A DNA stretch of 64,000 nucleotides from Deferribacter thermophilus (GTDB taxonomy: Bacteria; Chrysiogenota; Deferribacteres; Deferribacterales; Deferribacteraceae). A program made the position numbers and the translations under genes. Of the stretch, positions 5,687 through 44,882 are shown piece after piece. Numbering within the stretch: position 1 is the stretch's first letter; the number at the start of each line of letters is the position of its first letter. The stretch lies in the NCBI RefSeq assembly GCF_049472675.1, contig NZ_JAPNXM010000007.1:25521-89520 (forward strand), in the 5' to 3' direction. Under the pieces are notes generated by a model that saw only the letters and a list, made by a program, of their open reading frames with translations, ran no database searches and was not told the origin of the DNA.

Positions 5687-5848
5687 AATACCTCCATCTT
5701 TTCTTAGTTAAATAATGTTTAACCTACAATATAAAAAAAATCAATACCAAAGACTTTTTGATATAGATTAGAAGAGCTTATATATTCTAAAAAGTTTATC
5801 TCGAGGTAATTACTAGAGGCTGTTTTATAACTGTAGCTCAAATTACCA

Positions 5849-6013
5849 GATCGCTTCGTCAGCTCTCGCTTCCTAGCGATGACAAACTGATTATCGTCAT
5901 TGCGAACGAAGTGAAGCAATCTCCTGCGTCAACGACATAAAAGAGATTGCTTCGTCGCTATACTCCTCGCAATGACTGAGAAATTAGTCTTTGCGAGCGT
6001 TAGCGAAGCAATC
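5849..6013. repeat. Cluster of four 26-35 bp palindromic repeat units in alternating orientation (consensus GTCATTGCGAGCG-N-AGCGAAGCAATC)
   Basis: Units at 5849-5883 (reverse, degenerate), 5896-5921 (forward), 5945-5976 (reverse) and 5987-6013 (forward). The same unit recurs at 6694-6720, 24827-24853, 38910-38936 and 38946-38978. Confidence 0.85.
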
Positions 6014-6099
6014 TAATGAGCTTATTTCTTACATTAATTTTATAAATGTTTTTTTACTAATATTGATTTTATTATAGTAATTTCTTATAAATAAAATAG

Positions 6100-6339
6100 A
6101 TGGAGAAGCAAGTGATAATAAAATTTACAAGGCATGCTAAAAGAAGAGCAAAACTTTATAAAATACCAAAAGAATTAATTGTCAATATTCTGAAAAATAT
6201 TGACACTTCTCAAGGTGAGCATGAAATAATAAAATATGTTGAAGGGTTTAAATATCCATTAAAGATTGTTTTTGTTGTAGAAAATAATATATTAACAGTA
6301 ATTACAAATTATCCATTAAAAAGGGGGTATAAAAAATGA
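6100..6339 (+). CDS. DUF4258-family small protein (putative toxin of a type II TA pair)
   Basis: 79 aa with an H-A-K-R-R motif near the N-terminus and a VVEnNILTVITnY C-terminus, as in DUF4258. Its stop overlaps the downstream start (ATGA). Confidence 0.6.
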   Translation: MEKQVIIKFTRHAKRRAKLYKIPKELIVNILKNIDTSQGEHEIIKYVEGFKYPLKIVFVVENNILTVITNYPLKRGYKK

Positions 6340-6548
6340 AAGTATATTATGATGATGCTGCAGATGCTATTTATATAGAGCTTAATAATGTAGAGCCAGA
6401 TGGGGTTATTGAATCTGATAATGGTATCAATCTTGATACTGACTCTGAAGGCAGAATTGTTGGAATTGAAATCCTAAATGCATCTAAAAAGATAGATTTG
6501 TCTTCTCTCCTTACTTACTCTTTTGAGGTTAAAAAAAAGGTGGTTTAA
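6336..6548 (+). CDS. DUF2283-family small protein (putative antitoxin partner of DUF4258)
   Basis: 70 aa. MKVYYDDAADAIYIEL...GRIVGIEILNASK matches the DUF2283 pattern. Translationally coupled to the upstream gene. Confidence 0.6.
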   Translation: MKVYYDDAADAIYIELNNVEPDGVIESDNGINLDTDSEGRIVGIEILNASKKIDLSSLLTYSFEVKKKVV

Positions 6549-6671
6549 CAAAATCCAAAAATCTCTTATAATTCCTTATTCATTATAAATTGAATGTATA
6601 TATAATCACAATTAAACTTTGTTAAACAATCTGCTCCTTATCACTCTTTTCTAACTTTGTTAACATAATTT

Positions 6672-6720
6672 GCAACATACAATGACTGCCTTTGTCTTTG
6701 CTAGCCTCAGCGATGCAATC
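6672..6720. repeat. Isolated, partly degenerate copy of the palindromic repeat unit
   Basis: GTCTTTGCTAGCCTCAGCGATGCAATC at 6694-6720, plus a half-unit (..ACAATGAC) at 6672-6687. Confidence 0.6.
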
Positions 6721-6742
6721 TCAAAAATAATAAATTTTTATT

Positions 6743-7123
6743 TTACTTATTATTATTTCTATTTTGCATATACCTTTTTACTTCTTCCCTTTCTTTAACA
6801 AGGTGGTCTAACAGCTCCTTTAATCTCCAATTTAAGTTATGCTCTGTCACCATACAAAAAAGTGGCTTTGGCAGATCAATCTTTTTATAACTTTCTATAA
6901 AATCTATTATCTCATTTTGCTCAGCACCTGCAAACATTATCAAAACTTCGCTATGAATATCCCCTTTTTCAAAATTGCCATCACCATTTAAAATTTCTTT
7001 AACCAGTAAATCATCCTGATCTCTATATGCAAAAATATAGTCAAACCCTTTTTGTGAACATAAATTTTTCAATAAATCTTTTTGCTCTCCATCAAGGCCG
7101 CATGCCAAAATTTTTTTATTCAT
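6743..7123 (-). CDS. Hypothetical protein (possibly DUF3783-like), last gene of the TAXI-TRAP operon
   Basis: 126 aa, overlaps the upstream CN-hydrolase gene by 8 nt. The domain call is from memory only. Confidence 0.5.
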   Translation of the reverse strand: MNKKILACGLDGEQKDLLKNLCSQKGFDYIFAYRDQDDLLVKEILNGDGNFEKGDIHSEVLIMFAGAEQNEIIDFIESYKKIDLPKPLFCMVTEHNLNWRLKELLDHLVKEREEVKRYMQNRNNNK

Positions 7124-10941: not shown

Positions 10942-11940
10942 TTATTTAGTTTTAATTATCTTTCCATCGATATCACTGTATAGTTTTGAAAAAAATCTTT
11001 CTTTATCTCTTTCATATTTAGGAGCAAAATGTAAAAATTTTACAAACTTTGCACCACTTACTTCAAAAATCATTTTGGCTAACTCTACTGTTAAATGTTT
11101 TTTATAAATAGCATCCAAAACATCATCTTTTAAAAACATAGCTTCAATCAATAAAACAAATGTATTTTTAGCAAAATTGACAGCTTTTTTGAAATTTTCA
11201 TAAGTTGGAGCAATATCTGTAATAAAAGTGATATCCTGAGGTTCTTTGTAAATTACCAAATTTTGTTCGAGCTCTTTTAAAGATACCTTTTTTATCCCCT
11301 CAACAGTTTCAACATCAATCTCTTCCCTCAAATCAACGCAATTTCTCAGTTTAGACTTTAAAACTGTAAGCCAAGGGCCTGGAATATATCCAAATTTATC
11401 AAACACATCTTTCTTTATATTTACATGTTTTTCTTCTTTTATCCTATATCCAACAGAAGGGATACCATGATCAAAAAACTCATACTCTAAAATAAAACCA
11501 TCTTCTAACTCTATCCTGTCAGCAACCAAATCACAATATTCTGGGACAAAACCATTCGCAGCATCAAACAAAGCACAATTTATTTTTCCATCTAAACCAA
11601 GCTCGAAAACTTCAATTTTAAAAGTGTAGTTCTTTATCAAATTCCAGGTATAGGCATCAAGCTTACCTTTAACATTTTTAATAATCCCAGGTGGGCCAAA
11701 AACTCTCACTTTTTTATCTGAGCGCAACATCCCTCTTAATATTCTATCAAATCCATAAAAATGATCTATATGTGTGTGACTAACAAAGATATCAGAAATA
11801 CTTAATATTTCAGAATTTTCTATATTACCAAGCCTGCCACAATCAAGTAAAAAAGCCTGCCTTTTGTAAATATTTCGCACAAAAAAAGCTGTATCTTCAA
11901 AAGGTGAATTTACCTGCTTTATTGTAAAATTATGGCGCAT
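10942..11940 (-). CDS. MBL-fold metallo-hydrolase
   Basis: HTHIDH motif. 332 aa. The start overlaps the upstream kinase stop by 1 nt. Confidence 0.75.
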   Translation of the reverse strand: MRHNFTIKQVNSPFEDTAFFVRNIYKRQAFLLDCGRLGNIENSEILSISDIFVSHTHIDHFYGFDRILRGMLRSDKKVRVFGPPGIIKNVKGKLDAYTWNLIKNYTFKIEVFELGLDGKINCALFDAANGFVPEYCDLVADRIELEDGFILEYEFFDHGIPSVGYRIKEEKHVNIKKDVFDKFGYIPGPWLTVLKSKLRNCVDLREEIDVETVEGIKKVSLKELEQNLVIYKEPQDITFITDIAPTYENFKKAVNFAKNTFVLLIEAMFLKDDVLDAIYKKHLTVELAKMIFEVSGAKFVKFLHFAPKYERDKERFFSKLYSDIDGKIIKTK

Positions 11941-13478: not shown

Positions 13479-13993
13479 TAAACTATCTCCGCATTGTGAA
13501 CTTTTTCCAACTGCATCAAGCCAAATTTATGACCATCTTCATCAAGGCCTATAATACAATCCTTTGGAACAATCACTTTATACCCTCTACTTACAGCATC
13601 AGCAACAGTGTACATTACACAGATATTTGTCACAAGCCCTGTAACGATTAGCTGTTCAACACCCAAATCTTTCAAGATTTCATCTAAATTTGTGTTAAAA
13701 AAGCCTGAATACCTTGTTTTTTCAACAACAATATCACCATCTGAAGGTTTTAACTCTTCAACAACTTCAGCACCCTTTGTCCCTTTTACGCAGTGATGTG
13801 GCCAGATTTTAAACTCATCATCATCTTCATCATGAGCATCACAAACATAAATAACTGGATACCCCTCTTTTCTTGCTTTATCTATTTCTCTTTTAATATT
13901 TGGGATTATACTCTTAGCATTTGGCACCTGCAATGGAGCACCTTCTAAAACAAAATCGTTTAACATATCGATAATTATTAATGCCTTTTTCAT
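13478..13993 (-). CDS. Isochorismatase-family cysteine hydrolase (nicotinamidase-like)
   Basis: MKKALIIIDMLNDF N-terminus and catalytic Cys in a VTGLVTNICV context. Confidence 0.8.
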   Translation of the reverse strand: MKKALIIIDMLNDFVLEGAPLQVPNAKSIIPNIKREIDKARKEGYPVIYVCDAHDEDDDEFKIWPHHCVKGTKGAEVVEELKPSDGDIVVEKTRYSGFFNTNLDEILKDLGVEQLIVTGLVTNICVMYTVADAVSRGYKVIVPKDCIIGLDEDGHKFGLMQLEKVHNAEIV

Positions 13994-14833
13994 TTTTGCC
14001 TCCTTAGAGACTTTAAAATATCAAGCTGGTTTTTATAACTTTTATCCTCATCAAAAGGGGTTTCCAAAATGCCCAAAACACCATCTAACCTTTCATCATT
14101 CACAAGTTTCTCAAAAAATTCTAAACCTAATAAACCTCTACCGATATAGGCGTGTCTATCTATTTTTGATCCACACTCTTTATTTGTATCATTTAGGTGA
14201 AAAACTTTTATTTTATCTTTAAAATTAGTAAAAAAAGTATCAATTACTTCATCATATCTGTTTTTTAAATCATACCCTGCCGCATACATGTGGGCAGAAT
14301 CAAGACACACACCAATCTTTTCAGGAAATTTAGAATTTTGAATTATATAATCTATGCTCCCATTTATAACCTAAATTTGAGCCTTGGCCTGCTGTCACTT
14401 CAAGCAATGTCATAACATTAAAATGATACTCAGAATAAACTCTGTCAATATTTAGAACTATTTTATTTAACCCTTCTTGCTCGCCAATTCCTAAATGAGA
14501 GCCAGGATGCATTACATAAAAAGGAACATTCAGTTGATCACATCTTGACAACTCATCAATAAAACATTTAACTGACTTTTCCTCTGTCTCTTTTTTCGGA
14601 GAACAAAGATTTATCAAATAGGCACTATGGGCACAAATTCTATCAAAGCCTAAATTTTCTGCAAAAACTTTAAATTTATTTACATCTTTATCTGAATATG
14701 GCTTAGCAACCCACCTATTTGCATTTTTTGTAAAAATTTGTAAACACTCACAACCATCACTTTCTGCAAGTTTTAGGCTGTTGAAAACACCACCAGAAAT
14801 TGATTCATGAGCTCCAAGAAGCATGAGGCCCAC
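13990..14833 (-). pseudogene. nfo: Endonuclease IV (nfo) interrupted by a single frameshift near 14350-14358
   Basis: The 5' ORF ends ...TAGQGSNLGYKWEH. The 3' ORF continues in another frame as ..IDYIIQNSKFPEKIGVCLDSAHMYAAGYDL, which aligns with the Nfo core ..EHLAAIIDG..VGVCIDTCHAFAAGYDL. The two pieces together make about 280 aa. Confidence 0.7.
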
Positions 14834-22150: not shown

Positions 22151-22540
22151 ATGAATGAAAAGTCACTTTGGGAATTTTTAGAAAAACACTTAAACGCCAT
22201 CTACACAGGTGATTTTAAAACCTATGAAGAAACAACACACAAAGACCTCACTTTATACGAATGGTTTGTAGCTCCTCATAGAATAGAAGGTTTAAATTTT
22301 CACAAATTTATGATGGAAAATAACTGGGCAAATACTCATGACGGTTTTAATATTCATCTCACAGATAAAAAAGCTCAAATATATAATGATACAGCTATAC
22401 TTACCTATACATTAATAATTTCCTACAAAAATGAAGGGAAGATAGAGCATAAAGTCGTAAATGAAACAAGAGTGGTAATAAAATTTGGCAACACACTAAA
22501 AGTAGTCCATGTACATAAAAGCCCAGGGAAAGAGCAATAA
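22151..22540 (+). CDS. Hypothetical SnoaL/NTF2-like small protein
   Basis: 129 aa. The fold call rests on the pattern alone. Confidence 0.45.
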   Translation: MNEKSLWEFLEKHLNAIYTGDFKTYEETTHKDLTLYEWFVAPHRIEGLNFHKFMMENNWANTHDGFNIHLTDKKAQIYNDTAILTYTLIISYKNEGKIEHKVVNETRVVIKFGNTLKVVHVHKSPGKEQ

Positions 22541-22564
22541 TGCTCTTCCCCTCTTCTCTTTTAA

Positions 22565-22912
22565 TTAATACTCCCCTTTTGATGGAACAATACAAATAAA
22601 TTCAAAATCCTCTTCCCCAGCATTTAAAAATTGATGTTCAATATTGTTTGGGACAAAAGCTATTGATCCTTTTTCCACATTATACTCTTTTCCATCCATA
22701 TATAAAATCCCTTGTCCACCAATTACATAATTAATGTGTGGCCAATCATGTGAATGCCTCGGTGTTTTTCCCCCTTTTTCAATTCTAAAAACTCTCATCA
22801 CATAATCATCCCAGCCTTCATTTTTTCCAATTGCTACTTTTTTAAATACCTTTTCAGCTTCTTTCATATTCATTGCTACTTCTTCCTTATCCTTTAAATG
22901 ACCAACAAACAT
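22565..22912 (-). CDS. Cupin domain protein
   Basis: 115 aa with an H-x-H...E...H cupin metal motif region (PRHSHDWPHINYVIGG). Confidence 0.7.
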   Translation of the reverse strand: MFVGHLKDKEEVAMNMKEAEKVFKKVAIGKNEGWDDYVMRVFRIEKGGKTPRHSHDWPHINYVIGGQGILYMDGKEYNVEKGSIAFVPNNIEHQFLNAGEEDFEFICIVPSKGEY

Positions 22913-24614: not shown

Positions 24615-24650
24615 TGGGAGCTTTACGCTCCCATTTCCTATATTTTTTAA
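24615..24650 (+). terminator. Rho-independent terminator of asd (TGGGAGC-ttta-GCTCCCA followed by a T-rich tract)
   Basis: 7-bp stem immediately after the asd stop, followed by ATTTCCTATATTTTTT. Confidence 0.7.
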
Positions 24651-24656
24651 AAATGA

Positions 24657-24888
24657 GGCTATTGCACAATAAACTATATTTTTGCTAACAAAGTAGTTTT
24701 GAGGTTGATTCTCCCGCCATTAACTTAACATCTTAATAATTATATATCAATAACATAATATACTCAAAAAATTATAAACTCAACTTCTGCCAATAAATGG
24801 CTGGGTCGCAATAACCCAAAAATGCCGTCATTGCGAGCGTCAGCGAAGCAATCTAAATTCTTAAAACTAATACTATTGTGCAACACCC
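24657..24888. mobile_element. MITE-like element (~232 bp) with 15-bp terminal inverted repeats GGCTATTGCACAATA / TATTGTGCAACACCC and one internal palindromic unit
   Basis: TIRs at 24657-24671 and 24874-24888 match 13/15 as reverse complements. Internal unit GTCATTGCGAGCGTCAGCGAAGCAATC at 24827-24853. No ORF. Confidence 0.55.
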
Positions 24889-24898
24889 TCAAAATATA

Positions 24899-27993: not shown

Positions 27994-28052
27994 TTTTTCT
28001 TTAGCTTTATAAAAATTTTTTAGATGTTGCCACTTGATGTGGCAGCATTTCT

Positions 28053-37964: not shown

Positions 37965-38858
37965 ATGATTAACTTAATTTTCATTTTTAGCTACAAAATA
38001 GAAATTGAAGAACAATTAAAAAAAGAAATTCCTCTTTACCTAACTCTAAAAGCCACCAATAAAAAATTTAAACTACCAGATTATTTGCTTATTGAAAATA
38101 AACTATCATTCAAAAAAGATTACACCCTTTTTAATGTAAACGGAGAAAAATACATCTATATCAAATCTTCATACATAAAAGACAAGCTCAAAGATAAGCT
38201 CTTTATAATTTTTTACTGGGATATGATAGCAATCTTTTCTGTGGCAATATTGTATTATCTTGTTTTATACAGGTTGATAATAAAAGAAAAAAATTATCTA
38301 AAAAACTTTGAGATTCTACTTCTAATTTTTTCTCACAAACTGAGAAACTTTTTAACCACCTCAAAACTCAATCTTCATTTAATCAAAACAGAAAACAGAG
38401 TCCCACTGGAAAGATTAATTCATGCTCATGAAAACCTTGCAAAAGATTTAGAAAATATTCAATATTTTATCAAAAGATTACCCACTCAAAATCAAAGTAA
38501 AAATAAAATAAATATACCTATTTTAGTTAAATCTTTAATCGAAGAGCTGGAGCTAAACAAACTTTTTTCTATAAAATTTAATTGTTCTGAAATTTATATT
38601 AATGCACCTTATCAAGATATTTACTTTGCCTTATACCTTTTGTTTGATAATATCTTAAAACATGCAGGTCAAAATGTCACAATAAAATGCGGCAAAATCA
38701 AAAAATTAAAATATCTCATTATAAAAAATGATATAACTGAAAATGAAACAAAAGGGCTTGGAGTAGGTTTATATGTTGCAGAAAAACTCCTTACCACCAA
38801 TGGCTTCAAAATCAAAAGAAAAATAACCTCAACCTTCACAATCGCCATCAAATTTTAA
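37965..38858 (+). CDS. Compact sensor histidine kinase
   Basis: H-box SHKLRNFL and G-box GLGVGLYVAEKLL. 297 aa. Confidence 0.65.
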   Translation: MINLIFIFSYKIEIEEQLKKEIPLYLTLKATNKKFKLPDYLLIENKLSFKKDYTLFNVNGEKYIYIKSSYIKDKLKDKLFIIFYWDMIAIFSVAILYYLVLYRLIIKEKNYLKNFEILLLIFSHKLRNFLTTSKLNLHLIKTENRVPLERLIHAHENLAKDLENIQYFIKRLPTQNQSKNKINIPILVKSLIEELELNKLFSIKFNCSEIYINAPYQDIYFALYLLFDNILKHAGQNVTIKCGKIKKLKYLIIKNDITENETKGLGVGLYVAEKLLTTNGFKIKRKITSTFTIAIKF

Positions 38859-38872
38859 CAACAAATTTAATA

Positions 38873-39022
38873 GGCTGTTGCACAATAAAGAAAATAATAT
38901 AATTTTTGAGATTGCTTCACTGACGTTAGCAATGACCAATTTCGCGTCATTGCGAGGAGCGAATGCGACGAAGCAATCTATCGATTATTAATTTTCCCAA
39001 CTTAAACTATTGTACAGCAGCC
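38873..39022. mobile_element. MITE-like element (~150 bp) with TIRs GGCTGTTGCACAATA / TATTGTACAGCAGCC and two internal palindromic units in opposite orientation
   Basis: TIRs at 38873-38887 and 39008-39022. Internal units at 38910-38936 and 38946-38978. Confidence 0.55.
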
Positions 39023-39136
39023 TTAGAAAGTTCATTTGCAATTTAAAACGAAATATTTTACAATAAATTAGTATTTTTCACGATTTTTTTACAAAAAAGA
39101 AATAATTTGATATTTTAAGTTAAGTGGAGGAATTGT

Positions 39137-39445
39137 ATGAAAAAAATATTTCTTGTATTAATCATATGTTTTTCATTATCTATAATGAGTTTTGCAAAAG
39201 AAGAATCTAATAATCTACCTAAAGAGCAAGTTGTTAATTTAAAAACAGGATATATAAAAAGCTTTAAAAATGAATTCATATCTTTGGAAGATGGTTTCTA
39301 TTTTTATGTTGATGAAAATACTGTAATTATTAACCCTGAAAATAGAAAAGTAGATAAAAAATTCTTAAAATCTGCATATAAAATTAAATATAAAAACAAC
39401 GGAAATTATGTATATTACATAAAAATATTATCATTAGTTAAATAG
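39137..39445 (+). CDS. Small secreted protein translationally coupled to pilY1
   Basis: 102 aa with a signal peptide. Its stop overlaps the pilY1 start. Confidence 0.45.
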   Translation: MKKIFLVLIICFSLSIMSFAKEESNNLPKEQVVNLKTGYIKSFKNEFISLEDGFYFYVDENTVIINPENRKVDKKFLKSAYKIKYKNNGNYVYYIKILSLVK

Positions 39446-42400
39446 TGAGGATTGCTATGGGCAAATGCATTACAATATCTTTAATAATAATTTTAATGTG
39501 TTTTTTTAATCCAGTATTATCTCAAGCTGCAAAACCATCAAACAACTCAGATGCTGGACAAATGGTTACTTACTGCTCTATACCACCATTTGTTTCCTCA
39601 GCTATTCAGCCAAATGTGCTAATAATACTGGATAATTCTGGAAGCATGTTTGAATTTGTATATAAAGAAGAAAAATCTACAAGATCATACTCTAACGATT
39701 GTTCAAATGATGCTACAGTTTATTCAGGATACAAAGATAATGAAACCTATTTTGGCCTTTTTGATCCTAATAAGAAATACTCATATAATACTACTAATGA
39801 TTATTTCTATGAAATAGAAAATGGTGAATGGAGTGGTAATTTTTTAAATTGGTTAACAACCAGGAGAATAGATGCAGTAAAAAAAGTATTAACTGGAGGA
39901 AAATATATCATCACCAATGATGGAAATATTTTGTTAACTGCAACAGATAATTTTGATAGAGATAGTCGAAAAATATTAGAAAATAATGTACAAAATCTCA
40001 CTGGACTTAATAATTATAACGATCAAGGTGCTTATTTTTACTTTTACAATAATAATAATAATAATAATAATAACTTTGTTTATTTTGATGTTAGACCTGC
40101 AACATGGAATAATAACTGTTGGGTAGTTGATAATAATCCTACAACATTTAGAGTTGCTTTGAAAGTCGAAACACAACCCTCTGGGATAATACAGAAAACA
40201 TGGGATAAAGTAAGATATGGACTTTTCACCTTTAATTATGACGATGGAGGTCATTTAGTTTCTGAAATAGGGAGTAAATATGATAATCCAACATTTATTG
40301 ATGACATAAATAAAATCACTCCGTCAACTTGGACTCCACTTGGAGAAACTCTATATGAAGCTACTTTATATTTTAAAGGAGATAAAACTTTTTATAACGG
40401 TGATTATACATATAATAGCCCTATCCAATATAGTTGTCAGCAAAATTATGTTCTTATTTTAACTGATGGTGAATCAACAAGGGATAAAAACTTTCCAAAC
40501 AAACTTGATAGTAATGACCCAAATAGCACAATTGATAATCTTCTTGACATTATTGAAGAAAATGAGGGGTTTAATGATAACAGATTACATAATGACTTAA
40601 ATGATTCCAATGGATCATATAGCTTAGCTGCAGTATCTTATTGGGCTCATACTACAGATTTAAGAGAAGACTTAACAGGTACTCAAAAATTAAATATTTT
40701 TACAATCTTTGCATTTGATGATTCGGAAAACGCAAAAGATTTACTTAAACTTTCAGCAAAATACGGTTCTTTTGCTGATAATAATTTTAATAATTTGCCA
40801 GACAATTCAAACGAATGGGATGCAAACAATGATAATATTTCTGACAACTATTTCGAGGTCAATAAAGCAACTGATTTAGAAACAAGTTTAAGTACAACAA
40901 TTGCTAAAATTTTGCAAGGGGCAGCAGCAGGTTCTGGTGTAGCCCTCATGACTGATAGGACAAGTAGCACAAGTATTGCTATCCAAGGTTTATTTGAAAA
41001 CAAAAAGGATATTGATAATTCAACATTGACATGGATTGGACGTTTATTTGGGTGGTGGGTTTATGCAATAGAAAAAGATAATGAAAGTATAAAAGTTAAC
41101 ATTAGAGAAGATACAATAAATAATAAAAAGTTTAAATTAACAGAAGATAGAATTTTAACATATGATTATGACGTATTAGATAATAAATTAGTGCTAAAAC
41201 TTATTACATGTGATGACAATGGCTCTGGTCTAATTGATAATTCTAGTTGTAAAACTTTCTATTCTTTTGACGACATTACACCAATATGGGATGCAAGTGA
41301 AGAATTATTAAATAGAGAAGCTGATAATAGAACAATTTACACATATAATGATAATGGAGATCTTATTCCAATTGATGATTACAATAACTCAGAATTGTTT
41401 GGTACAGATAATACCACATATATCACATCTTTAATAGATTACATAAAAGGTATTGATTCTGATAACTATAGAAATAGAACAATTAAAGTTGATAATGAAC
41501 AAAAAGTATGGAAGTTAGGTGACATTATCCACTCTAGACCTATGTTGGTAAAGTATGATGATTATACTGTTGCTTATGTTGGAGCAAATGACGGAATGCT
41601 TCATGCATTTAAGGTAGGTTATGCTAAAAAATTAAGAGATGATCCAGAGGGTTATTTAGCAGTCTTACAAAATTCTAAAAATGACAGTGGACAGAATGAA
41701 ATAGGTAAAGAGCTATGGGGATTTATACCACATTCTGTTATCCCATATTTAAAATTTCTGGCAGACCCAAATTATTGCCATTTATATTATGTGGATGCAC
41801 AACCATATATAATAGAAGAAGATGGAAAGAAAATCTTAATCGGCGGATTAAGATTAGGTGGGGGTTGCTATTGTAGTAAGCAGGAAGCTGCTGATGAATG
41901 TGTCAAAAGTCCTGATAACGAAAATGGACTATCGTCATACTTTGCACTAGACATTACAGATCCAGAAAATCCAAAATTTCTGTGGGAATTTAATCATAAA
42001 GACTTAGGTTTTTCATACTCTGGTCCTGCTTATATAAAACGCCCCGAAGGTAAATATATAATGTTTTCTTCAGGACCTACTACATATGATGGTCACTCCT
42101 CTAAGTCATTGAAATTTTTTATTTTAAAATTAGATGAAGATTTCAAATTAATAAATAATACTCCAGATGTTTTAGACGGTAAAACTCAAAACGCATTTGG
42201 TGGTAAACTATATACAACTGGTATTGATAAAAATGAAGATGGTTTTACTGATTTTATAGTAACAGGTATTGTAAAAAATGTAGGTAAAACAAATTCTCAA
42301 GGTGGTTTAGTCGTAATCCATACCAAAGGAGGAGATCCATCAGCTTGGACTGTTTATCAAAATTATTATAATTTTAGCCAAAACCCAACCGTTTCTAAAG

Positions 42401-43113
42401 TCGAAGCAGGCAAATGTTTTAACTTAGGTTATTATTTGTTTTTTGGTAGCGGTAGATATTTTTATCCTGGAGATGATGAAGGAACCTCAGGTGTTGGAAA
42501 CGAAGAGAATTATATTTACGGAATACCTTTTGACTGTGATGTTGAAGAAGGTTGCAAAGGGACTGTTAACAATATTAAATCTGTAGAGCTATTAGATGAC
42601 CCTTGTAATGACCTAACAAATTTTGAAATCACAAACAATGAGTCTAAGGAACTAGGGTGGAAAATAAAATTAGACCCTACTGATAATGTATATTTAAAGG
42701 AAAGAAATATTATAGACCCTGTTTTAGTAAAAAATAAAAACAATCCAGCTAATAGATATACTAATAATAGAGATTACTGGACATCGCAAATCATTACATT
42801 TATTACAAACAAATATGAAAAAGATCCATGTATTTTAAAAGGTAAAAGTAAAATATGGGCACTTAACTGTGCTACTGGTGGTCCTTTAAGACCAGACAAT
42901 ATTACTCACAAAATTTGTAGTAATTATCAAGTAACTGACGACTTTGCTATATTTACTACAGCTAGTACAGGTGAAATTTCTATTGTAACAGATGACGATG
43001 TAGGAACTGAAAGATTCATCGAAAAAGATAGTAATATTATAGCTTCTGATTTAGGTGAAGACTTAACTGGTAACAATAGAAAAGGTAGAATACTTTTATG
43101 GATAGAAAAATAA
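39445..43113 (+). CDS. pilY1: Type IV pilus tip-associated adhesin, PilY1/PilC-like, with an N-terminal vWA domain
   Basis: Signal peptide. vWA MIDAS motif LIILDNSGSM. C-terminal PilY1-type region with a Ca-binding-like loop DKNEDGFTD. 1222 aa, followed by four prepilin genes. Confidence 0.7.
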   Translation: MRIAMGKCITISLIIILMCFFNPVLSQAAKPSNNSDAGQMVTYCSIPPFVSSAIQPNVLIILDNSGSMFEFVYKEEKSTRSYSNDCSNDATVYSGYKDNETYFGLFDPNKKYSYNTTNDYFYEIENGEWSGNFLNWLTTRRIDAVKKVLTGGKYIITNDGNILLTATDNFDRDSRKILENNVQNLTGLNNYNDQGAYFYFYNNNNNNNNNFVYFDVRPATWNNNCWVVDNNPTTFRVALKVETQPSGIIQKTWDKVRYGLFTFNYDDGGHLVSEIGSKYDNPTFIDDINKITPSTWTPLGETLYEATLYFKGDKTFYNGDYTYNSPIQYSCQQNYVLILTDGESTRDKNFPNKLDSNDPNSTIDNLLDIIEENEGFNDNRLHNDLNDSNGSYSLAAVSYWAHTTDLREDLTGTQKLNIFTIFAFDDSENAKDLLKLSAKYGSFADNNFNNLPDNSNEWDANNDNISDNYFEVNKATDLETSLSTTIAKILQGAAAGSGVALMTDRTSSTSIAIQGLFENKKDIDNSTLTWIGRLFGWWVYAIEKDNESIKVNIREDTINNKKFKLTEDRILTYDYDVLDNKLVLKLITCDDNGSGLIDNSSCKTFYSFDDITPIWDASEELLNREADNRTIYTYNDNGDLIPIDDYNNSELFGTDNTTYITSLIDYIKGIDSDNYRNRTIKVDNEQKVWKLGDIIHSRPMLVKYDDYTVAYVGANDGMLHAFKVGYAKKLRDDPEGYLAVLQNSKNDSGQNEIGKELWGFIPHSVIPYLKFLADPNYCHLYYVDAQPYIIEEDGKKILIGGLRLGGGCYCSKQEAADECVKSPDNENGLSSYFALDITDPENPKFLWEFNHKDLGFSYSGPAYIKRPEGKYIMFSSGPTTYDGHSSKSLKFFILKLDEDFKLINNTPDVLDGKTQNAFGGKLYTTGIDKNEDGFTDFIVTGIVKNVGKTNSQGGLVVIHTKGGDPSAWTVYQNYYNFSQNPTVSKVEAGKCFNLGYYLFFGSGRYFYPGDDEGTSGVGNEENYIYGIPFDCDVEEGCKGTVNNIKSVELLDDPCNDLTNFEITNNESKELGWKIKLDPTDNVYLKERNIIDPVLVKNKNNPANRYTNNRDYWTSQIITFITNKYEKDPCILKGKSKIWALNCATGGPLRPDNITHKICSNYQVTDDFAIFTTASTGEISIVTDDDVGTERFIEKDSNIIASDLGEDLTGNNRKGRILLWIEK
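40048..40074 (+). repeat. (AAT)8-AAC trinucleotide tract encoding N9 inside pilY1
   Basis: Direct observation: FYFYNNNNNNNNNFVYF. Confidence 0.9.
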
Positions 43114-43559
43114 TGAATAAAAAAGGGATAACTCTAATAGAATTACTTGTAGTAATATCAATTCTTGGTATAATATTAGCTATAGCAATACCAAATTATA
43201 ATAAATGGAAGATAAAGCATGAAAGAGAGAAAGAGTTGAGACAACTATATTCCATAATACAACAATACAGGACAAAAGCTTTTACTGAAAAAACAAGCTT
43301 CACACTTGAATTTCCTTCACAAAATAAATTAGACATTAAAAATGACAATGGAACTATCGTTAGCTCAATAACATTTAAAATATCCTTTGATAATCCAAGC
43401 ACTATAACAATTGACGATAGAGGTACTCTATCGAATATTTCAATCAAATTAATTAGTGATTCAATAAATGATTCACTACCTTACAATTGTATTGTCAGCA
43501 ACGGTATAAGAGTTAGATTAGGGAAAATAGATGGTGGTGGTAGCTGTGTTGCAAAATAA
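43113..43559 (+). CDS. Type IV minor pilin / pseudopilin (FimT/GspH-like)
   Basis: Prepilin leader MNKKG|ITLIELLVV with Glu+5. Start overlaps the pilY1 stop. The ORF track gives an upstream start at 43098. Confidence 0.7.
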   Translation: MNKKGITLIELLVVISILGIILAIAIPNYNKWKIKHEREKELRQLYSIIQQYRTKAFTEKTSFTLEFPSQNKLDIKNDNGTIVSSITFKISFDNPSTITIDDRGTLSNISIKLISDSINDSLPYNCIVSNGIRVRLGKIDGGGSCVAK

Positions 43560-43965
43560 AAAAGGATTTACATTAATAGAAATGATGGTTAGTTTATTTA
43601 TTTTTTCTGTGGCATTACTTGGGCTTGTAGCTTCGATGATAACTGTCAAAAAAATGAATATGAGAAATAATGTCAGAAATATTGCAATTGAGCAGGTTAA
43701 TAATGAAATCGAGAAATTAAGAGCATACGGTTTTAACAAGATAGATAATTTAATTGGCTCCTGTGAAAATATAGAGTGCTCCCCTGCAAACGACAACTGC
43801 AGCATGAAAGCCCAATATAGAAATACATGGATAAGTATAGGGAAATCTTTTACTGTAAATACTTCTGGCACTACTAAAGAAATAGTTATTACCTCTTGTT
43901 GGGAACTTTTTGGTAAAAAATATACTTATACAACTCAAACCTATATCGCAAAGGATATACAATGA
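43531..43965 (+). CDS. Type IV minor pilin (PilV-like)
   Basis: ..KKG|FTLIEMMVSL prepilin motif. The true start is probably an internal TTG/GTG just upstream of QNKKG. Confidence 0.65.
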   Translation: MVVVAVLQNKKGFTLIEMMVSLFIFSVALLGLVASMITVKKMNMRNNVRNIAIEQVNNEIEKLRAYGFNKIDNLIGSCENIECSPANDNCSMKAQYRNTWISIGKSFTVNTSGTTKEIVITSCWELFGKKYTYTTQTYIAKDIQ

Positions 43966-44882
43966 ACAAAAAAGGTTTAACATTAATAGAACTCTTAATA
44001 GTGATTTTTTTATTGGCTATTATATTATCAGCTGTTTATATAACCTATACTACACTTTTAAAAGATTACAGAAAAGAAACTAAGAATATAGAAACAGAAA
44101 TAGAAAAAATGGTGGGACTTGATATTTTAAGACTTGATATCACCCATGCTGGATACGGTATATCAGATAATGAAACATCAAAAGTGATAGAATGTATTAA
44201 TTGTGAAGATCCTGATAATATTTCTTTTATAATTAGATCCACTTTTAATGTTACAAACAACGATACCCAACACTGGATCTTTGTAGATGCTGATGATAAT
44301 AAAACAATTGGAACGCCAGATAACAATATAAAATATGTATATATTGATATTAATAAAAAACTTTTAAAAGATAGTGCTTTGTGGACTAACAAGCCTAACA
44401 GTGGGAAATATATTGCTTACCCTGTACAAGACAATGCTACAGGTTGTTCTAATCAAACTTGTACAAAAATAACTTACAAACTAAGCACAACTAATTTACC
44501 TGAAACATGTAATCCTAATACCTTTAAATTACTCAGGGCAGTAAATAATGGTAATGGAGATCCAATTTTAGATTGTGTTGCAGATTTTAAATTAAGATTT
44601 GATTATGATAAAAATAACGATGGAGAAATAAACAGTAACGAAGAATTATTAAGTTTTGATAATATAAGTAGTGATAATTCAACTGCATTTAGAAATAAAC
44701 TAAAAAGAGTCAGAATATTTATACTTTTACAAGATGGCGGATATGATAGAGACTTTACTTTTCAGGGAGCTGACAGTAACAACAAAATAACTGTTGATGG
44801 TGTAAAATTACAACTTCCAAACAACTATACTCATTATAGATGGAAAACTGTTGTGTATACAATAAAACCTATGGATTTATGA
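43962..44882 (+). CDS. Type IV minor pilin (PilW-like)
   Basis: MNKKG|LTLIELLIV prepilin motif. 306 aa. Confidence 0.65.
   Translation: MNKKGLTLIELLIVIFLLAIILSAVYITYTTLLKDYRKETKNIETEIEKMVGLDILRLDITHAGYGISDNETSKVIECINCEDPDNISFIIRSTFNVTNNDTQHWIFVDADDNKTIGTPDNNIKYVYIDINKKLLKDSALWTNKPNSGKYIAYPVQDNATGCSNQTCTKITYKLSTTNLPETCNPNTFKLLRAVNNGNGDPILDCVADFKLRFDYDKNNDGEINSNEELLSFDNISSDNSTAFRNKLKRVRIFILLQDGGYDRDFTFQGADSNNKITVDGVKLQLPNNYTHYRWKTVVYTIKPMDL

Follow-up and report, generated by a model that had tools for sequence, protein, structure and literature searches.

Two short segments in a 64-kb stretch of Deferribacter thermophilus DNA (31% G+C; the window, meaning the whole stretch that was analysed) consist of palindromic units held between inverted ends. 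They raise the question of what kind of element they are and whether they reached their present sites by transposition. An earlier note on this DNA had called them miniature inverted-repeat transposable elements (MITEs) mobilised in trans. We conclude that they probably belong to a small family of MITEs, which are non-autonomous transposons, in the D. thermophilus/desulfuricans lineage of the vent bacterium Deferribacter; the transposase and any present-day activity are the parts of this reading that we infer.

The product of asd in the window is 100% identical to that of D. thermophilus, 99% to that of D. desulfuricans SSM1 and 91-92% to those of D. abyssi and D. autotrophicus. The nucleotide sequence of the window shares 91-93% identity with SSM1 and about 95% with the Logan assembly of run ERR15087768. 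These identities give us three close lineages and two more distant species to compare.

Ends, layout and setting of the two elements

When up to two mismatches are allowed, the 15-mer GGCTRTTGCACAATA matches the 64-kb window four times, against an expectation of 0.38, and none of 100 dinucleotide shuffles reached four matches. These matches, the only ones in the window, are the four claimed ends, and they form two inverted pairs. In element 1, the left end is at 24657-24671 on the forward strand (GGCTATTGCACAATA) and the right end at 24874-24888 on the reverse strand (GGGTGTTGCACAATA); in element 2, they are at 38873-38887 (forward, GGCTGTTGCACAATA) and 39008-39022 (reverse, GGCTGCTGTACAATA). 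On exact alignment, 13 of the 15 positions are complementary within each element, which bears out the description of the termini as near-perfect inverted copies, and in element 1 the inverted repeat reaches 18 nt. In all copies the repeat runs 2-3 nt beyond GGCT, with GA or TA on the left and TC, TA or TT on the right. Thus, the terminal inverted repeat (TIR) is about 17 nt long, GAGGCTRTTGCACAATA, and the end type of the elements reads GAGGCT..TTGCACAA. The longer TIRs occupy 24655..24671 (forward, GAGGCTATTGCACAATA) and 24874..24890 (reverse; TATTGTGCAACACCCTC on the forward strand) in element 1, and 38871..38887 (forward, TAGGCTGTTGCACAATA) and 39008..39024 (reverse; TATTGTACAGCAGCCTT on the forward strand) in element 2. 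Element 1 measures 232 bp and element 2 150 bp, or 236 and 154 bp with 17-nt ends.

The palindromic units, GTCATTGCGAG...GAAGCAATCT, do sit inside both elements, as the earlier note had said. Element 2 consists of an end, a 21-nt AT-rich linker, a reverse unit (38909..38937, reverse strand), a spacer of 7-9 nt, a forward unit (38945..38979, forward strand), a 28-nt linker and the other end; the forward unit is CGTC-tagged and stands head-to-head with the left one. Element 1 is laid out in the same way, with a CGTC-tagged right unit at 24826..24854 (forward strand, CGTCATTGCGAGCGTCAGCGAAGCAATCT), except that its reverse unit (24701..24815, reverse strand) is degenerate. An alignment of the window, SSM1 asd, SSM1 HU and Logan copies, together with the DNA fold, indicates that the inner stem of this unit, CCCGCCATT/AATGGCTGGG, is split by an AT-rich loop of about 75 nt. 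This expansion in the left unit makes up the difference between 150 and 232 bp and marks a 'long' subtype. The family comprises two subtypes, one of 150 bp and one of about 232 bp with an AT-rich expansion inside one palindrome.

Neither element has a credible open reading frame (ORF): the longest has 42 aa and a TTG start (element 1), and stops occur in all six frames. Thus, the description of two ORF-less elements with conserved ends is upheld. Both are non-coding and lie well within the size range of MITEs (about 50-500 bp), and their TIRs are common to all copies, that is, to the four ends in the window and to the SSM1, Logan and D. abyssi copies described below. For both, folding predicts a long hairpin with the TIRs at its base (z = -4.4 and -3.4), which could possibly influence the transcripts of adjacent genes as a by-product. 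In SSM1, an annotated 91-aa hypothetical protein, DEFDS_1419 (L001:11073-11348), sits wholly on the element downstream of asd. A search of a collection of 5.8 billion proteins found only DEFDS_1419 itself; as it has no homologue there, it is almost certainly a spurious ORF.

Element 1 occupies the spacer of two convergent genes, asd and a metallo-beta-lactamase-fold gene, directly past the asd terminator. On one side of element 2 is a rare histidine-kinase-like gene, and on the other an operon that encodes prepilin-type N-methyl proteins. The kinase-like gene (37965-38858) has no Pfam match; four homologues are detectable in a large protein collection, none of them from SSM1, D. autotrophicus or D. 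abyssi. Thus, the two spacers named in the earlier note are correct, and its term 'accessory-looking' suits the kinase/pilin locus but not asd. Its label 'PilY1' is putative, as the 1222-aa protein (39445-43113) has no Pfam match. The pilus assignment of this operon comes solely from the three prepilin-type N-methyl proteins encoded downstream (43098-44882).

Two other differences between the compared genomes were seen in the window. The gene for a xylose-isomerase-like TIM-barrel protein (AP_endonuc_2; 13990-14833) is present as two ORFs of 106 and 167 aa, and its Logan orthologue is a single gene of 281 aa; the split is likely to be a frameshift/nonsense pseudogene in this strain or a sequencing error. 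Additionally, an ammonium transporter gene stands between the CaMKII_AD-like and cupin/PrmA genes in SSM1 (L001:7466-8722), D. autotrophicus and D. abyssi, and is missing in the window (22540-22565) and in the Logan assembly.

Further copies, flanking repeats and age

SSM1 (L001:11068-11298) and the Logan assembly (L118) have the copy downstream of asd at the corresponding site. The Logan contig ends inside the element, at 11166, a stop that a repeat-induced assembly break would explain. The asd spacer of D. autotrophicus and D. abyssi measures 40-48 bp and contains another terminator hairpin and no element. Element 2 has an orthologue at the same kinase/pilin site in the Logan assembly (L117); no element was found beside more distant kinase homologues (a Logan contig at 48% identity; Calditerrivibrio). 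The former contig (L159, SRR20140227) ends at 5706, 82 bp past the gene, and has no TIR or unit there.

SSM1 has an additional copy of the long subtype, 232 bp in length, in the spacer between the HU and uracil-DNA-glycosylase (UDG) genes (L001:14407-14638). The corresponding spacer in the window (27994..28030) is empty; the borders of the filled site cannot be placed exactly against it because the spacer is AT-rich and diverged. Thus, presence/absence polymorphism is seen at the HU-UDG site, where SSM1 has the element and the window does not, and at the asd spacer, which holds it in three lineages and is short in two species. The HU and asd copies of SSM1 are 83% identical across the entire 232 bp, internal expansion included, so that whole elements were copied and not their ends alone. 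A diverged copy lies in a convergent spacer of D. abyssi (L028:4512-4690; ends CAAGAATAAGCAC.../...GTGCAATACTCTTG). These results answer two of the checks that the earlier note had proposed, for further TIR-bounded copies and for empty sites in relatives.

In total, we saw two copies each in the window (64 kb) and in 21 kb of SSM1, and a single one in 8 kb of D. abyssi; the 308-kb plasmid pDF308 had none. A search with nhmmer, using the copies as queries, found no more copies in the Deferribacter DNA compared; it did find bare units at 5848-6014 and about 6663-6729. A genome collection was scanned with a composite unit and TIR pattern, and among the matches listed there was one Deferribacter locus, that of D. 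abyssi. Most of the listed matches were set aside as a conserved Bacteroidota coding motif (58-nt spans, in a RelA/SpoT-type gene as judged by eye) or as chance matches. A tighter pattern gave 33 matches in a metagenome scan, none of Deferribacter type.

Short direct repeats flank several of the copies, immediately outside the 17-nt TIRs and 2 nt beyond GGCT. The asd copy has AAAAT on both sides, in the window (24650..24654 and 24891..24895, identical) as in its SSM1 orthologue; the SSM1 HU copy has ATAAT on both sides; and the Logan orthologue of element 2 has GGAAA on the left and AGAAA on the right. The matches are therefore 5/5, 5/5 and 4/5. We tried 35 combinations of offset and length, and the 5-bp register alone stands out; when flanks were shuffled over the three independent insertions, 10 of 200,000 trials were as good (p ~5e-5). 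In the window, element 2 keeps AGAAA on its right (39025..39029; 4/5 to the GGAAA left of the Logan orthologue), and its outer left 5 nt (TTTAA, 38866-38870) do not match. It lacks the repeat because 7 nt at the left junction, AAATGGA, which are kept in the Logan orthologue, have been lost. No flanking repeat was seen at the D. abyssi copy. As the repeats are the same within a copy and differ between copies, they behave as target-site duplications. Read as 9 bp in the same register, the flanks match at 6/9, 6/9 and 5/9, and they may be a decayed 9-bp duplication instead of a 5-bp one. Thus, the proposed check for target-site duplications gave candidate repeats at three independent insertions, of a length that may be 5 or 9 bp, but not at element 2 of the window or at the D. 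abyssi copy.

These repeats bear on whether transposition is needed at all. The copies could stem from a spacer segment that was duplicated, in tandem or ectopically, within one chromosomal neighbourhood. In keeping with this, the two long copies of SSM1 are 3.1 kb apart in the same orientation, and their flanks are alike, with (A/T)AATGA on the left and TNA(A/T)AATAT on the right. However, their 5-bp repeats agree within each copy and differ between the two (AAAAT vs ATAAT), the surroundings of element 2 and of the D. abyssi copy are unrelated, and the similarity between paralogues ends within a few bases of the TIRs. We consider local duplication highly improbable.

The age of the copies can be judged from their divergence. 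Orthologous copies (24655-24890 and 38871-39024 in the window, compared with L001 and L117) are 80-83% identical, whereas the flanking spacers and gene ends are 93-98% identical. The elements thus diverge several times faster than their surroundings. This divergence agrees with neutral decay, with decay accelerated by the hairpins or with conversion among copies. Paralogues are 75-83% identical, and their TIRs are mismatched at 2 of 15 positions; the orthologous copies predate the split of the three lineages. Because of the mismatched ends, the low identity of paralogues and the fast divergence of orthologues, the copies are probably old and inactive. They are probably fossils.

The same comparison weighs on a possible role for the host. 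The elements could be cis-acting sequences that selection keeps in certain spacers, such as a terminator, an insulator, an mRNA-stabilising hairpin or a small RNA gene, with the inverted ends serving as protein-binding or stem sequences. At three of the four sites the neighbouring genes converge, a promoter-like -35 hexamer of the pilin-type operon follows element 2 at a distance of 11 nt, strong hairpins are predicted, and orthologous copies have been kept in three lineages. Divergence above that of the flanks is the opposite of purifying selection and argues against a conserved host function, and close relatives do without the elements in the asd spacer (D. autotrophicus and D. abyssi) and in the HU-UDG spacer (the window). 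Additionally, asd has its own canonical terminator upstream of element 1, no terminator-like or above-chance promoter signal was found inside the elements, and a search of Rfam matched nothing in them. Selection for such a role is therefore very unlikely to explain the elements.

A third copy had been proposed near 5818, where GGCTGTT was read as a degenerate left end preceding a repeat cluster. We found no support for this claim. GGCTGTT occurs eight times in the window, the 15-mer at 5818 matches the TIR at 10 of 15 positions, and the best right partner matches at 7 of 15, under the mean of 8.1 for a random best of 61. The cluster itself (5848..6014) has four REP-like units in two head-to-head pairs, is without TIRs and falls outside the TIR-bounded family. 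Next to it is a two-gene cassette, consisting of a 79-aa ORF (6100-6339) and a gene for a DUF2283 protein (6336-6548), which is flanked by the cluster on one side and by a degenerate unit pair (about 6663-6729) on the other. Just outside are weak TIR-like 15-mers, GAGGCTGTTTTATAACT at 5816 and TATTTTGCATATACC at 6760, each matching at 10 of 15 positions. The region 5816-6776 may represent a larger element that has decayed and that carries the cassette, or the arrangement could be due to chance.

Candidate transposases and the inner units

No transposase gene, and no insertion sequence (IS) with matching ends, was found among the window genes by Pfam. The SSM1 megaplasmid pDF308 (NC_013940, 308 kb, searched whole as L152-L158; 24.5% G+C) has no TIR and no REP-like unit. 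It carries 17 IS200/IS605 copies (tnpA-tnpB pairs), one IS256 and an IS5 fragment. Its IS256 was rejected as a parent as its ends differ (TAGTGYA...TTTTGTGTAAG), and its IS200/IS605 copies are without such ends. As far as SSM1 was sampled, TIRs and REP-like units are confined to the chromosome. Among viral contigs, 118 single TIR matches were found, approximately the chance rate by our estimate, with no credible inverted partner. For the SSM1 chromosome, ISsaga annotations list IS5, ISL3 and IS256 elements; the list for D. autotrophicus includes further families (PMC6896113, Table 1).

A search of full texts with the end sequence pointed to the MITEAba12 paper, which tabulates the ends of ISAba12, IS17, ISAba10 and their relatives. 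Resemblances to the ends of IS6/IS26 and ISL3 were dropped for this documented match. We take ISAba12, IS17 and ISAba10 to belong to the IS903 group of the IS5 family. They and their relatives have ends reading GGCTTTGTTGCACAAA(TA) and mostly make 9-bp duplications (PMC6382973, Table 2). When gaps of 2 nt and 1 nt are given, all 15 aligned bases of the Deferribacter ends agree with this sequence.

Based on these results, we propose that a DDE transposase supplied in trans would bind both ends of an element, which would then insert into AT-rich spacers with a target duplication of about 5 bp. Judging from the ends, the enzyme would be of the IS5-family type described above. As neither the window nor pDF308 gave a transposase, and the viral contigs gave no paired ends, the case for mobilisation by an IS5-type enzyme is drawn from the ends alone. 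Thus, the earlier reading of MITEs mobilised in trans is borne out in its first part by the aligned TIRs, the other copies, the filled and empty site, the 5-bp repeats and the IS-like ends. Its second part found no such backing: a cognate IS, which the earlier note had proposed to look for, was absent from the window and pDF308, and no autonomous IS with the same ends appeared in the viral contigs.

The inner units are widespread. Their consensus is (C/T)GTCATTGCGAG, then a variable segment of 2 to about 60 nt that often forms its own hairpin, then CGAAGCAATCT; the two flanks are nearly invariant. We compared the units of the window (24826-24854, 38909-38979 and 5848-6014) with those at L027, L029, L035, L043, L048, L052, L063, L067, L094, L111, L113, L119, L140, L142 and L148. 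Units occur in Deferribacter, Bacteroidota, Planctomycetota, Nostoc, Legionella, Endomicrobia and plasmids of Methylocystaceae, and sites on Methylosinus and Methylocystis plasmids match the right unit of element 2 at 94-97% identity. Over all loci compared, the units carry the prefix CGTC in 29 cases, TGTC in 10 and GGTC in 6; in the window, CGTC tags are carried by the units at 24826, 38945 and 5894. Paired units are head-to-head in both elements as well as in the 5848-6014 cluster. A literature search with the unit sequence returned primers only. We also considered a hammerhead-like reading of the GAG...CGAA in the unit, which was rejected by eye as the CUGA box and A15.1 are missing.

These properties recall the CGTC-tagged REP superfamily. 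The inner units have a CGTC or TGTC head, a stem that starts with AT, and head-to-head dimers. However, only the 5-bp outer stem ATTGC/GCAAT pairs, followed by an internal GA-rich loop, a variable inner hairpin and a CTN tail, whereas Di Nocera et al. (2013, PMC3733652) give stems of 8-9 bp, loops of 4-5 nt and a CCA tail. As far as the text descriptions in that source allow, the inner units are akin to the four published CGTC-REP families in layout and lie outside them. They also differ from REPINs, which are doublets of GTAG-tagged REPs that accompany a flanked RAYT gene: the units have no GTAG head, and the window has no Y1/RAYT gene.

The main rival to the MITE reading starts from these units. 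It holds that the mobile or amplified entity is the pair of head-to-head CGTC palindromes, that the outer repeat is the base of a composite palindrome, and that movement follows an HUH (RAYT-like) single-strand route or another one. To our knowledge, HUH/Y1 transposition does not make flanking direct repeats, and such repeats do flank the elements. The linkers between TIR and unit are not complementary, and the outer repeat resembles a known type of DDE-IS end. In addition to the lack of a RAYT/Y1 gene in the window, pDF308 has no REP-like unit alongside its 17 IS200/IS605 copies. Conversely, the core of the elements is REPIN-like, the same units are found without TIRs at 5848-6014, at 6663-6729 and in many phyla, and the entire element folds as one hairpin. 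According to Di Nocera et al. (2013, PMC3733652), REP dimers are regularly embedded in longer outer palindromes, and a dedicated transposase for CGTC REPs is said not to have been found. On balance, we regard a mobile REP dimer as an unlikely explanation, and we retain the MITE reading.

The two kinds of repeat may also be combined. CGTC-type REP palindromes might travel as cargo in a shell of IS5-type inverted ends, moved by a DDE transposase. We put this forward as a speculation that is quite unlikely to be correct. If it were true, it would provide one concrete route by which 'orphan' REPs spread, and it could explain the REP dimers that lie in longer outer palindromes in other bacteria.

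Comparison with known systems

Apart from their architecture, the elements are ordinary mobile-DNA debris, of a kind that is already well known. They account for inflated spacers and for spurious small ORF calls in the lineage, such as DEFDS_1419, and possibly for the short-read contig break in L118. Among the classical bacterial MITEs are Correia/NEMIS (Neisseria), RUP (pneumococcus) and ERIC. Like the Deferribacter elements, these are about 100-250 bp long and intergenic, have TIRs and long hairpins, and often are without an identified transposase. Correia and RUP duplicate TA, classical MITEs reach tens to hundreds of copies, and their sequences are unrelated to those described here. Two Deferribacter genome papers report IS elements and do not mention MITEs (PMC2885270, PMC6896113).

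In their ends, the elements resemble MITEAba12 and its ISAba12-IS17-ISAba10 relatives: the terminal repeats are of one type (GGCTTTGTTGCACAAA(TA) there, GGCTGTTGCACAATA here), and both are short, non-coding and targeted to AT-rich intergenic DNA. However, MITEAba12 is 113 bp long and makes a 9-bp duplication, whereas the Deferribacter elements are 150-232 bp long with repeats of about 5 bp (at most 6/9 in a 9-bp register). Additionally, the Deferribacter ends are extended by GA, their core is a REP-like dimer, their host belongs to another phylum, and no co-resident parent IS was found for them in the window or on pDF308. As judged from sequence, the elements resemble the MITEAba12 family and are not members of it, for the ends are alike only with gaps and the lengths and duplications differ.

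In architecture, they are comparable to QMITE2 of Coxiella burnetii, in which 150-190 bp with TIRs and flanking direct repeats surround a REP palindrome (PMC5896051). There too, the bare REP occurs elsewhere in the genome and in distant taxa, the elements lie in 3' UTRs or intergenic DNA, and they are kept between strains. QMITE2 differs in having a GTAG-type REP that is a target of IS1111, and direct repeats of 7-11 bp (PMC5896051). The comparison concerns architecture, and no sequence similarity is expected.

The inner units, finally, share with the CGTC-REP superfamily, as Di Nocera et al. (2013, PMC3733652) describe it, the CGTC/TGTC head, the AT start of the stem, the head-to-head arrangement, a short unpaired tail, an occurrence across phyla and the lack of a linked transposase. 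Dimers inside longer outer palindromes are reported there and are seen here. A difference from the superfamily is that the outer repeat in Deferribacter looks like an IS end and is accompanied by flanking duplications. More generally, IS-type ends around a CGTC-REP pair offer a connection, open to testing, between two classes of small repeats, one of them with no known mobilising enzyme, that are usually handled apart.
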